The position numbers were made by a program, and so were the translations under genes. The notes under the pieces are model-generated. The model saw nothing but the letters and a program-made list of their open reading frames with translations. It did not search any database and was not told the origin of the DNA. From Eledone cirrhosa (taxonomy: Eukaryota), in contig OZ024756.1 of assembly GCA_964016885.1 (NCBI GenBank), forward strand, positions 28,396,001-28,460,000: a stretch of DNA of 64,000 nucleotides, written 5' to 3'. Numbering within the stretch: position 1 is the stretch's first letter; the number at the start of each line of letters is the position of its first letter. This document shows positions 6,501-12,500 of the stretch, piece after piece.

Positions 6501-9500
6501 TTGAACAAACGAAAGAAATGCTACTTACTCCGGGGTTACTTTGACCAAATGGAGAGCCCACTGGTATTGAAAATGAACCATATATTTACCAACCATTATT
6601 TTACACTGGGATAATTGAATTTCTTGAGGTAATTCCCAACCATTAAAGTTACCAAAAGAAACAACAAGTCTTAGAAAGTCTGTGTGCAGCGCACTGCTGC
6701 AGAACTGAATGTAGAGAGAGAAAACATTATGCATCATATTCTGAAGCTCCATTTGGTAACTATGCTGCAAACAGGGTATGCAGTATTTGGTGCAGGCATA
6801 TTGTCCTGATTCCTTTAAACTTAATATCACATTATGGCTCTCGAGTAATTCAAGGACTGAATGACTGAAGACATCACTGGGATAGAGGTTGGCCACCAGA
6901 GCCTGTTGGTCAACGATTCCACTTGATATTTTCTGATACTGTGAGAAACTATGGCTCCTGTTCACAACAGAAATTGGTTGATACGCAAGCTGTGACATGG
7001 AATTCAAAATGTATTCCACATTTACATACAAACTATTTCCTTGGGATGATTTTCTGGGATATACTGCAAAATCTAGTAGAAAAAATTGAAAAAGTCTTTC
7101 ATATTTATGTAATATTTTATTTCAAATTCAAATTATATATATATATGACTGTATGTATATATATATTCAAATATATATATATATATATATATATATATAT
7201 ATATTTGAATATATATATATAGTAATAATAATAAATGTGAAGACTAAAATCCGAAGAGATAAGGAAAATATATATATAAAATATATAAAACCGTAGAGCA
7301 AATATTTATTAAAAGATCCCATTAAGAGTGAAAGCAGCAATTCTTTGCTTAAACTTTAATCTGTTATTTTAATAAATATATATATGAATATATATATATA
7401 TATATAGGAAAAGGTATGACCCCGACGGCAGAGCTCAAGCCATTTCGACGGCTATTTCTGCGTCCAGAAATAGACGTTGAAACGGCTTGAGCTCTGCCGT
7501 TGGGGTCATACCTTTTCCTATTACCCACTCTACTACCCTAAGTATTGAGTACTCTGGTGCATTATGGTCCATCTGGTTCCTTACCACAATTCCTTCGTTA
7601 TATATATATATATATATATATATATATATGAATAAAATAAGTAAGTCAAATATGTAAAATTTGACTTCGTTTATTATAAATTATAAATTTACTGCTATAT
7701 ATATATTTCAGTGACAGCTATTATTGGCTGTGAACTCTTCAGGCAGTCTGAATTGGTGTGGAAAAGACAGGTACACATGTTGTTGAAGTGTGTTCCACTC
7801 TGTCAATACATCGATATGTCCAGCTCCTGGGTGTGTTGTTAGTCCTCCGAGGAAGGATTAACACACATATATATATATATATATATATAAATAAATATAT
7901 GAATATATATGTATATATATATATATATATATATAAATAAATATATGAATATATATGTATATATATATAAATATATGAATATATATGTATATATATATAA
8001 ATATATGAATATATATGTATATATATATAAATATATGAATATATATGTATATATATATAAATATATGAATATATATGTATATATATATAAATATATGAAT
8101 ATATGTATATATATATATAGAGATATATATATATATATATATATATATATAACTGAGGATGTCTGTCTGTGTGTGTGTGAGTTTGAATCCCTAAAACTCG
8201 AGAACCACCCAACCGACTGTTTTCAAACTTTACACATGTAATACTTATGTTTCAGAGAGTGTTCTGAGCCAAAATAATTTCAAATCTTCAATGCCCTAGG
8301 GACCGCATTAGGCGATTTAGCGATCTCTCTCTATAATTCTTAGTCTTTCTCTTTTTAGATAGATACATACATATAACGTCGCACCCTTATAATATCTGTA
8401 TTATGTCTGACTGTCTGCATTATGTCACTTCCCTGAGGATGTCTGAAGCATTGTATATGGTATAAAGAAATCGAAGTTTGAAAGCCACAACAATACGAAA
8501 TGGACTGATAAACAAACAATCGAATGTATCAAGATGTTAGGTATTTATTTACCTAATTTATATATATGTCCTGATATTTTGAGATTAAAATCTCTTCTTC
8601 CGTGAATAAATACACATATATATATATATTTGTGTGTGTATATATTTAATTATTTTTTTCAAATTTTGAACCCTGCTCTCTCTACATATTATATTTGCTT
8701 GATAAAGGACTAATGCCTGATATGTTGTGACATTTGTTTTCGTTTTCCCCTCAAGCATTAAACTAATTAGACTTCTTTCTTATCTTGAACTATAACATCT
8801 GCAAGATTTGTAAATTTGAAATCATGTAAAATAATAATAAAAACAATAATAATGATAATAATAATGATTTCTAGTATATGCACAAGGCCAATAACTTTTT
8901 TTTTTGGGGGGGGGAGTCGATTAAATTGACGCCAGTATATTACTGGTGCTTTATTTTATCAACCCTGTAAGGATGAAAGGCAAAGTTAACCTCGGCGGGA
9001 TTTGAACTAAGACCGTAAAGGACCGTAACTCTATGCTGCAAAGCATGGTGTCCGACTCTCTACCAATACTGCCAACCGACTGCCCTATAATGATAATAAT
9101 AATAATGATAATAATAAAAACTCTCAGTAAAACTATTAACTTACTTCCAATGTAATATCTGAAAGAATTTATTTCTCGCACAGTCTGGTGAAAATCCTGC
9201 TGGGAAATTTTGTCATAGACATTGTGAACAGCTTTGCGAACAGCTTTGAAAAAGTCAGTTGTAATACTTTTACAAAGATCTACATGATAGATCTTGTAGA
9301 GTGCATAGGCAGCCATGTTGCTTATTGTTACTTCCTTCAGCTGTGCTAGTTCAAATAGAGAAGTGAAATACATGTTACTGTTTTTTTCAGGATTTGAAGG
9401 AATAACAATGGTCTCGACCAGAATCTTGTCAAGGAAGTAATTATGTTGATTACAGCATTGTTCATTGGTGTCCTGACAGATACATTTAACTTTGATTTGT

Positions 9501-12500
9501 ACTTCTTTCCCAACACAAGAATAGATTGTTTGCATATATCTCTTCAACATCCGCATTTCAGAATGTTTGGATCCATGTATGCTATTAGATAGCTGGCAAT
9601 CCAGCATGATTAAGAAAATGCTGTTTTTAGTAAAGGCAAGCTTCATGCAATGATGAAAGAAAGACTCATCTGATGAAGCCAGCAGTTCAAGAGCCACAAG
9701 TTGTTGCACATCCAGATTATAAAACCAGGACCGTTTACTCCAAGTATCAACAAACAGTGATCCTCTCTGAGTCCACACACAAGAAGCTTTGAACGCAGAT
9801 GTATCATTATTGAGGTTCGACTCCATCGTTAAGTAATTTTGAGAGATTTTGTTGGGGTTAGACTTCAGCCTAGTTACCAGGAAGTTGTAATATACTATAG
9901 CAGCAGGTCCACAAAGAAACACTCGCTTTATTGGGCAAATTCTTTTCTGTTCAACACAAGGTGTGTTCCTATGTTTAAATTTCACAGGTCGCTGAATAAT
10001 TAGCCGTAGTTCAGATTCAGTTTCAATTTTCCGGTTAATAACTTTATTCTAGAAAGTAAAAGAAAAAAAATATACATAGTTAAAAATAAAAAAAAAAGTA
10101 GAAGACAAATTCAATTTGGTAGTAATTTAAATTTTACCTGTAAATAATAAAAATGATGTCAAAGAAAGTTTTTTCTAAAATCAAATTAAATACCATATTT
10201 CTGTAGGGTAAATGGATGAAGTTTATTATATATATCTACACATATAATGTGGTTGGTGTTAGGAAGAGATCCAGTTGTAAAAAAAACCCAGCCAAAATAC
10301 AGGCCCATTTGAGCAAGGTACAGTGCAGCCAAATAGCCAGACTTGCCTCATAGCGTAGATGACCCATCTGACTCAAGCAAGCATGGAAAATAAGACGTTA
10401 AACAGTGATAATGATGATATATATAGATATACATATATATACATACACATATATCATCATCATTTTACGTCTGCTTTTCCCTGTTTGCAAGGGTGGGATG
10501 GGTCTTATTCAGCACAGTATCTCTCCACTTGTCACGGTCCTTCATCTCCACCGTGAGCTTCAGCGATCTGAGGTCTGTTCTCACCAACTCCGCCCATGTT
10601 TTTCGTGGTCTACCTCTACCACATCTTCCTTCAACTGGCATTTCCTGGCACTTTTTCACCCATTGGTCATCCTCCATGCGCATCACATGTCCATACCACT
10701 TCAGTCTCCTCTCCCGTACACTACATTCTATCCCTCTCAGACACAGTTTCTCTCTCAACATTTATGTTGGGTCGTTCACGCATATTGACATTGCACATCC
10801 AACGGAGCATGCTTGCCTCATTTCTCTCCAGCCATCGCATATCCTCTCAGTTGCTGCCCATGTCTCACTACCATGCAGTATCGCGCTCCTCACAGAGGCA
10901 TCATATAACCAGCCTTTTGTACGCAGGGAGAAACCCTTCTTCGTCAGCAGAGGAAGCAGCTCCCTAAACTTCTTCCAACCCGTCCTTATTCTAGATACTA
11001 TGGCCTCGGAACTCCCCCCCCCCCCATGCTAATCTGATCTCCTAGGTACCGGAAGCTATCCACCACTTCTATAGCACCCAACTGCATTTGAAAAATGTGA
11101 CTATCAATGCGACTTCTACTGTCTAATTTCCCTGTACATCTACTGTATACATATTTCTCCCTACCTGTTAGTTTGCCTGCTATCCTGCTACATCTCTTGT
11201 GTACCCAGGATCTGCATTGTGTGCATTTTATAGAATTTATGCCAGTTCCTTTTCTGCATATCGAACATGGCCATTTCCCTGACAGAATCAGAGTTTTGTC
11301 CTCTTTTCTACTCATCAACACTTTTGTCTTAGCTAGGTTCACTCTCAGTCCTCTTGCTTCTAACTGTTGTTTCCATAGCCACAATTTATTCTCTAGCTCC
11401 TCTACTGATTCTGCTATGAGAACCAGATCATCAGCATAGAAAAGTTCCCATAGACAGCCAGTCTTAAACTCCTCTGTTATGGCTTGGAGGACTATAATAT
11501 ATATGTATATATATATATATATATATATATATATATATATATATATATATATATATATATGGTTGGTGTTAGGAAGGGCATCCAACCTGCCAGATAGTCC
11601 TATACGAGCGAGACATGATCACCTGACAAATCTTGCCTCAAGTGGGACAATTCCGATCTAACCCATACTAGCGTGAAAGATAGATGTTAAACAATGATGA
11701 TGATATATATATATATATATATATATATATATAATTGTTTCTACTTTTAACACAAGGCCAGCAATTATCCCAGTGCATTACTGGTACTTTATTTTATCGA
11801 CCCTGGACCCTGTAAGGATGAAAGGCAAAGTTAACCTCGGCGGGATTTGAACTCAGATTATAAAGGGACGTAACTCTATGTTGGAAAGCATGGCGTCCGA
11901 CCCTCTATCGATACTGCCAAACAAACGAGGAAGTTTTGTTTATATATATGAAAGATATTTATTTTGTATCGACCTGTTATGAGGGTTACGCAGACGATTG
12001 GCTCAAGGTGACTCATAGGAGTTATGGACTCGACTCCAGTATCGATCTGCCCCTCAGACTGGTGATGCGACAAAAGATATATTTTTGTTGTGGTATGTGG
12101 GCTAAAAAATTATATATAAAGGCATCGGCCCCATTTTTTTATGTATGGGCGTATGTGTGTAATTGGTGGGGCAGCAATACGGATGTGTATTCACCGTTAT
12201 TCATGTGCGTGAGTGCGCGAGCAATTAAGGATTTGTGTGTGAGCACGGGTGGACGCATATTGGAATGTGTATTGGTCTACCTACACTATATATATATATA
12301 TATAAATTAATCTGTTGGTTTTTTTTGTTGCTTCGGTGTCGTGGCCAGGCTTGCCTGCCACAGTTTTCAATTTGTCATGTCGTCTAACGAATGTTATTAC
12401 TCTGATTCTTTATGGAGTGCTTGGCTGCATATTTCCTGATTGTATCTCGTTGGCTTGGCTACAGCCGAAGCTTTGATTTGACTAAACTTCCATTTGTATG

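Follow-up and report, generated by a model that had tools for sequence, protein, structure and literature searches.

A PDZ–Roc–COR–death domain gene of Eledone cirrhosa with a predicted Roc fold and degenerate nucleotide motifs shared across a family

A 64,000-nucleotide (nt) stretch of Eledone cirrhosa DNA (contig OZ024756.1, positions 28,396,001 to 28,460,000 of the forward strand; hereafter the window, to which all positions refer) carries on its minus strand an intact nine-exon gene, whose joined frame contains no stop and yields a product of 909 residues with the domain order PDZ-PDZ-Roc-COR-death domain. By tblastn with Octopus orthologues and inspection of the boundaries, we placed eight coding exons inside the window and the ninth just outside it; all introns are GT-AG. 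Here, we focus on exon 5 of this spliced gene, which encodes a predicted Roc domain without the G1 Lys/Thr and the G3 Asp/Gly, and argue that the protein is likely a nucleotide-independent signalling adaptor.

Exon 5 shares 76% identity with Octopus vulgaris over 300 residues and occurs once in the genome (one match among seven candidates scored). Four sequencing runs from one study contained the stretch searched, with zero differing letters. Three of these continue through the introns, as DNA would, and the fourth supplied a contig of 2916 nt that covers 9145-10049 only and whose ends run into exons 6 and 4. These joints are those of a spliced transcript in which exon 5 is joined to exons 4 and 6. 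The contig flanks—799 nt upstream, where 738 are needed, and 1213 nt downstream, where 1088 are needed—give room for the whole coding sequence and leave ~60 nt upstream of the start codon. A search of RNA runs for the stretch listed none as containing it. We considered a pseudogene or an assembly artefact and rejected both, given the intact frame, the splice sites, the agreement of the four runs and orthologues with the same motifs. At the 5′ end of the gene, orthologues start with M-G-M; the first Met is missing in frame at 17806-17815 (−), the second is kept, and out-of-frame ATGs lie just upstream.

A first-pass annotation had described a Roc-like domain with a lost nucleotide site in this exon. 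All peptides it quoted share one minus-strand frame, which is open, as it had stated, and corresponds to exon 5 with its AG and GT ends. KRVFLCG (9928-9908, −) is followed by PAAIVYY (9907-9887, −), not by xxxxGK[S/T]; the 14-residue G3 peptide lies at 9691-9650 (−), and the hydrophobic scaffold is made up of a 13-residue peptide at 9637-9599 (−) and a 10-residue peptide at 9547-9518 (−). Two points required amendment: IKVKCICQD (9496-9470, −) does replace G4, but its final Asp is in register with the G4 Asp of an intact Roc domain, and the boundary at 9450 was drawn too short, the domain extending to ~9330 to include strand 6 and helix 5 (Table 1). The P-loop is ~3 residues short, whereas the two intact Rocos that we compared carry the eight-residue GxxxxGKT; judged by helix register in the models, Ala would occupy the lysine position of G1. 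At G3, the register places Ala at the Asp position and Asp at the Gly position, and at G4 Gly-Thr-His is replaced; the final Asp gives way to Glu in O. bimaculoides and Argonauta and varies across the family. The 909-residue gene model contains no [GA]xxxxGK[ST], GK[ST] or D[FY][AG]G at any place, and so has no intact P-loop elsewhere.

Table 1 Positions in the window of the exons, the predicted pseudo-Roc domain and its degenerate motifs
Feature	Positions	Strand	Content and basis
Exon 1, coding part	17690..17806	−	Start codon, PDZ1 start; tblastn with Octopus orthologue, 88%; GT donor
Exon 2	15492..15977	−	PDZ1, Ser-rich linker, PDZ2 start
Exon 3	13538..13570	−	33 nt, PDZ2; tblastn and splice boundaries
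Exon 4	12653..12754	−	PDZ2; joined to exon 5 in the spliced contig
Exon 5	9145..10048	−	PDZ2 end, pseudo-Roc, COR-A start; AG/GT ends
Pseudo-Roc domain, predicted small-GTPase fold, six strands	9330..9940	−	Residues ~283-485 of the gene model; AlphaFold, Foldseek, VIA
Strand 1 and degenerate G1	9887..9928	−	DSSP on both models; three-residue loop G-P-A leading into helix 1; Lys and Ser/Thr absent
Strand 3, degenerate G3 (switch II), strand 4	9599..9691	−	hhalign register against intact Lingula Roco; A-S-S-D for DxxG
Strand 5 and degenerate G4	9470..9496	−	C-I-C-Q-D in place of G-T-H-x-D
Exon 6	6529..7072	−	COR-A, COR-B start; joined to exon 5 in the spliced contig
Exon 7	4712..4928	−	COR-B end, Cys-rich segment; tblastn and splice boundaries
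Exon 8	407..521	−	First half of death domain; tblastn and splice boundaries
Exon 9	just outside window	−	Completes the gene model

An AlphaFold model of the exon 5 part, built from a 28-row family alignment without any intact Roco, reached a predicted local distance difference test (pLDDT) of 71.7 and shows six core strands alternating with helices. With this model, Foldseek retrieved Rab8/Rab1 GTPases (E ~1e-6), while the best VIA match was 9ci3, the Roc of the Parkinson's disease protein LRRK2 (Z 11.8, root-mean-square deviation 3.9, 165 aligned) and three VIA rows reached into the COR-A of LRRK2 and LRRK1. When the complete O. vulgaris orthologue was modelled (pLDDT 70.7), the top fold match by E was the C. 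tepidum LRR-Roc-COR structure 6hlu (E 3.5e-13, ~500 columns), and the top six VIA rows were all Rocos, with Z from 16.5 to 14.4 (C. tepidum Roco 16.5, LRRK2 16.3) and the next row at 12.7. The COR part of this orthologue (residues 491-796) matched 3dpt with Z 11.3, and residues 19-112 have a PDZ fold (Z 12.6). In profile comparison with hhalign, the family aligned over 552 columns with LOC106150386, an intact-motif Roc-COR-death protein of Lingula (probability 99.9); without the death domain, the Roc-COR profile gave probability 99.4 and E 1.6e-21 over 418 columns, and ten of ten shuffled controls gave E 0.14 or worse. The domain is assigned as Roc chiefly because a COR follows it, and ESM features (Roc/COR-A, 0.91) provided a lead only. 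Pfam on the orthologues saw PDZ and death domains and nothing between (in Argonauta, PDZ E 3.5e-5 and Death E 3e-6) and reported no domain above cut-off in the six frames of the window, phmmer with the O. vulgaris orthologue against PDB returned PDZ matches only, and the family profile against PDB gave death and PDZ domains and no Roco in the best 60 of 425 matches. A small-GTPase fold in a Roc-COR tandem is predicted with near certainty.

A profile built from octopods only, run against 1.84 billion representative sequences, gave 30 matches at E <=0.001. Pfam and alignment sorted these into 18 proteins with a pseudo-Roc after PDZ, two hemichordate PDZ-PDZ-death forms without Roc-COR, one short PDZ-death protein, one intact Lingula Roco, and eight fragments or generic PDZ/death-domain matches. 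Named members belong to Octopus, Argonauta, Argopecten, Mactra, Mya, Potamilus, Haliotis, Aplysia, Babylonia, Biomphalaria, Lingula, Acanthaster, Asterias, Antedon and Diadema. Word-index searches, with 2, 2 and 3 family proteins (nine of the 12 rows of the third being generic PDZ), were too insensitive to define this range. In the databases, members go under 'uncharacterized', 'PDZ domain-containing' or MyD88—the last assigned automatically to one Mactra member—because Pfam misses the 500 central residues. An atlas search from which Roc and Ras clusters were excluded produced one weak lead (0.75).

The motif loss extends throughout this family. For this comparison we took 27 sequences, the gene model plus 26 others, which together represent cephalopods, bivalves, gastropods, a brachiopod and echinoderms; we set aside isoforms of shorter length, allelic duplicates, fragments and both hemichordate forms. 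None of the 27 has a Walker A at G1, and both intact-motif Lingula control sequences carry one. Two chance Walker-A-like strings and one DFG-type string lie outside the domain, and two gastropod members have a slightly longer G1 loop, still without lysine. Across 19 non-redundant rows, the G1 Gly is invariant (19/19) and the residue three places on is Ala in 15; no row has Asp at the G3 Asp position, and 13 have it at the G3 Gly position. By residue number, the conserved positions are P285 (19/19), R288 (17/19), G293 (19/19), A296 (15/19), E367 (16/19), D373 (13/19), H378 (14/19) and C380 (17/19). Remnants of G4 persist in slower-evolving members (LIGTQN in Antedon, LVSTWQAD in Diadema, LVATVSKD in Lingula). 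The motif loss, proposed from a single exon, is shared by molluscs, a brachiopod and echinoderms; together with the predicted models and the Roc-COR tandem matches, it supports the first-pass suggestion that the Roc fold was kept while its nucleotide motifs were lost.

Conservation is unevenly distributed along the protein. By mean pairwise BLOSUM score, the segment from strand 3 through switch II to strand 4 is the most conserved of 11 (1.82), ahead of PDZ2 (1.55), the G1 region (1.22), the death domain (1.02), COR-B (0.35), COR-A (0.29) and switch I (−0.10). Compared with O. vulgaris, identity is 76% in the Roc part versus 95% and 82% in the PDZ domains; in octopod comparisons, the Roc part (76%, 66%) stands above the death domain (71%, 56%). 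There are two candidate zinc sites: a CxxC within a long insertion that replaces switch I in bivalve-type members, and a Cys/His segment between COR and death domain in most full-length members.

A tree of 22 family rows and two intact Rocos separates the two Rocos from the family (98/97), recovers cephalopods and bivalves, and recovers gastropods weakly; one of its outgroup branches is very long, two of its rows are only half filled, and the cephalopod stem branch is long (1.53). A single ancestral motif loss would be the simplest reading. The hemichordate relatives, from Glandiceps and Ptychodera, have a PDZ-PDZ-death arrangement with a low-complexity stretch in place of Roc-COR, and could reflect either a real loss of the module or short isoforms.

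The P-loop lacks ~3 residues, and the switch II glycine has given way to an acidic residue, a change also seen in p190RhoGAP pG1; on these grounds, the domain very probably does not hydrolyse GTP and, with good though slightly lower confidence, does not bind it. In pG1, according to passages of PMC5593906, helix 1 occludes the phosphate cavity, Glu takes the gamma-phosphate place and MANT-GTPgammaS is not bound. From sequence and models, we infer that the Roc domain is catalytically dead, as the first-pass annotation had proposed.

C-terminal tails are the ligands of PDZ domains, and death domains pair with one another; the death domain of the family resembles those of known adaptors both by profile (p75NTR, E 3e-15; MyD88, E 2e-11) and by fold (MyD88, Z 12.7; Pelle/Tube, Z 12.4). 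We slightly favour a mechanism in which the PDZ pair would grip a membrane protein by its C-terminal tail, the death domain would recruit a death-domain protein like MyD88, Pelle or p75NTR, and the pseudo-Roc-COR lying between them would serve as a spacer of fixed conformation and a binding surface; control would then come from localisation or partner binding, without a GTP cycle. That two hemichordate relatives keep only PDZ-PDZ-death suggests that linking PDZ to death domain is the core job. The conserved switch II segment may pack on COR or bind a partner. In active Rocos, switch II touches, within one chain, the COR patch that is most conserved (in passages of PMC6337361); this contact fits the retention of the segment here, either to clamp Roc and COR in a fixed arrangement or as a surface for partners. 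Since COR-B is among the least conserved segments while switch II is the most conserved, the pattern argues in the first place for a role within the molecule or in partner binding.

The first-pass annotation had proposed constitutive dimerisation as a possibility, a reading compatible with an adaptor. A Roc-COR unable to use GTP would stay nucleotide-free and dimerised through COR, and would display two death and four PDZ domains at all times; by analogy this is plausible, if less likely than not. As passages of PMC6337361 describe, the C. tepidum Roco forms dimers in the absence of nucleotide and is largely monomeric in the presence of GTP, and its dimerisation depends on the C-terminal half of COR; COR-B is present in the model and in full-length members of our family. 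However, the low conservation of COR-B relative to switch II fits this poorly—although COR divergence in general and alignment error contribute—as do the two hemichordate relatives without COR, and the same passages report most cellular LRRK2 as cytosolic and monomeric, so that dimerisation is not automatic for animal Rocos. A homodimer prediction with two copies of O. vulgaris orthologue residues 286-783 scored 0.00 twice, in runs that left the alignment unused and in which the fold of the chain itself was uncertain, and counts neither for nor against a dimer.

The clustering of conserved residues in strand 1, the G1 loop and switch II could alternatively mean that the pocket was repurposed, with family-specific residues binding a small ligand (a nucleotide without hydrolysis, a metal or a phospho-ligand) and the protein acting as a sensor. 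The G4 remnants of slower-evolving members would agree with this, yet the loop is shortened and contains neither Lys nor any other basic residue that is conserved, a phosphate would be repelled by the acidic side chains at the gamma-phosphate place, and the G4 Asp is not conserved; we regard a sensor as unlikely.

Pseudoenzymes often regulate active paralogues, and the pseudo-Roc-COR might likewise heterodimerise with a Roco of the LRRK, DAPK or MFHAS1 type and tune or localise it, as pseudokinases do. The genome does encode at least one Roco with intact motifs: an LRR-Roc-COR gene in a long single open frame on the minus strand, with intact G1, G3 and G4 and Pfam matches to LRR, Roc, COR-A and COR-B, which we take from its architecture to be MFHAS1-like. 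It was the only match to the intact Lingula Roco in a strict first-look genome search that may miss matches, and this search revealed no active-motif Roc-COR-death paralogue; moreover, the family is very distant from the MFHAS1-like protein, and we consider a decoy or regulator of this kind a shade less likely again than a sensor. A Roc profile had 57 matches in the genome, and the two further places that we opened are Rab-type exons. A separate exon with a COR-A match (E 1.9e-5, ~173.65 Mb) points to another Roco gene.

That the Roc-COR is a decaying relic kept solely as a PDZ-death linker is very unlikely: the long cephalopod stem, the unconserved switch I, the weakly conserved COR, the absence of the module in two hemichordates and the lower conservation of Roc than PDZ among octopods would suit such a spacer, but across phyla the switch II segment surpasses both PDZ2 and the death domain in conservation, a 500-residue module stays in frame in 27 sequences of three phyla, and octopod Roc identity exceeds that of the death domain.

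The reading of a catalytically dead Roc within a nucleotide-independent adaptor has, for its part, several results set against it. As to the fold, the models are of medium confidence (pLDDT 70-72, switch I <50, alignments of 22-28 rows), and for the Roc-only model VIA places Rab GTPases level with LRRK2. Taken by itself, the Roc part matches the intact Lingula Roco modestly (probability 54.6, E 1.2e-4), and the family matches the genome's own MFHAS1-like Roco poorly (E 0.013-0.09). Pfam found no Roc or COR in the exon or in octopod orthologues, and COR-A only below threshold in two sea urchin members (E 0.002). The G4 Asp stands in register in both the E. cirrhosa protein and O. vulgaris. In the tree, Lingula groups with echinoderms rather than molluscs (97/93), only two intact-motif outgroups are included and simple orthology is not proved, and one hemichordate sequence is named isoform X2. 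Evidence for expression comes from one contig of one run whose type is not recorded, with only the joints of exon 5 seen directly. Finally, the putative adaptor role, for which no PDZ or death-domain partner emerged, is drawn from sequence and models.

The family-wide and ancient loss of the motifs is the surprising part. In a broader scenario, which falls a little short of being probable, the switch of a Roc-COR-death GTPase was lost a single time, a PDZ pair was added, and the resulting family, as old as the protostome-deuterostome split, was kept for more than half a billion years as a GTP-independent, locked and possibly always dimeric platform that couples the tails of membrane proteins to death-domain immune or cell-death signalling. 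Were this true, the family would represent a natural frozen state of the LRRK2 Roc-COR machine. Whether the Roc-COR of LRRK2 and DAPK1 is mainly a GTP-driven switch or a scaffold is debated (passages of PMC6337361); a conserved family with Roc-COR but without G1 and G3 lets the two roles be told apart and would supply a nucleotide-independent construct for structural and dimerisation work. Inventories of invertebrate immunity and cell death also gain a hidden, probable death-domain adaptor, tempered by the fact that pseudoGTPases are already a known class. We found no description of a PDZ-Roc-COR-death pseudo-Roco in the open full-text literature, a coverage that stops short of subscription papers, older Roco surveys among them. 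Passages of PMC8195603 and PMC11378527 mention AP-GTPase/COR and Roco-death combinations, and those passages contain no PDZ-Roco or inactive Roc.

The window is AT-rich animal DNA. Intron 4 of the gene harbours the broken remnant of a reverse transcriptase of the long interspersed nuclear element type (10402-11618, −; three frames; RVT_1, E 3.3e-7), and intron 7 a very long low-complexity tract (~1600-4300; GC content 0.001 in 2001-4000). A second such tract spans ~32300-36400. A minisatellite at 44717-45344 reads as an 18-residue repeat on the minus strand, with no meaningful Pfam match, and the frame at 54425-55060 (−), for which Pfam gave no match, resembles the GIY-YIG endonuclease of Penelope-like elements.

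Rocos are among the closest known systems. LRRK2 and LRRK1 (9ci3, 9cho, 8fac), the C. tepidum Roco (6hlu, 3dpu, 8r4b) and M. barkeri Roco2 (4wnr) share a Roc-COR tandem with the orthologue model over residues ~280-790, the Roc lying directly before COR, and the switch II region is the most conserved one in our family as it is in Rocos, according to passages of PMC6337361. Unlike Rocos, the family has neither G1 GxxxxGK[ST] nor G3 DxxG, its G4 is eroded relative to G-T-[H/K]-x-D, and LRR and kinase domains are both absent; the protein begins with two PDZ domains and ends in a death domain, and identity is 7-13%.

Among DAPK1-type and invertebrate Roc-COR-death proteins, Lingula LOC106150386 is colinear with the family in Roc, COR-A, COR-B, a Cys-containing segment and the death domain; it differs in keeping G1, G3 and G4 and in having no PDZ. 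In the Roc of this Lingula protein, ~350 hydrophobic residues that look membrane-spanning are inserted between G1 and G3. As in the DAPK1 group, the death domain lies C-terminal to COR, but two PDZ domains take the place of an N-terminal calmodulin-dependent kinase, whereas DAPK1 has a kinase domain and is GTP-regulated (passages of PMC6337361). With death-domain adaptors such as MyD88, Tube/Pelle and p75NTR, the family shares a death domain by profile and fold; it differs in that Pfam finds no TIR or kinase, the death domain is C-terminal, and a PDZ pair and a pseudo-Roc-COR are added.

Class i pseudoGTPases are defined biochemically, by neither binding nor hydrolysing nucleotide in vitro, and one of them, AAGAB psGD, is used as a protein-binding surface (both in passages of PMC12490416). 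p190RhoGAP pG1 and AAGAB psGD resemble the domain described here in their small-GTPase fold, predicted in our case, and in their degraded G motifs, which here are lost across species; a shortened or occluded P-loop and an acidic switch II are further points in common with pG1. Both differ in being Ras-like without a COR and in having had their nucleotide binding assayed, whereas ours is a Roc in a predicted Roc-COR, and we claim no homology between them. Judged by its sequence and predicted structure, the E. cirrhosa protein is a variant of the Roco kind that lies outside the active Rocos and shows those features of class i pseudoGTPases that can be computed.

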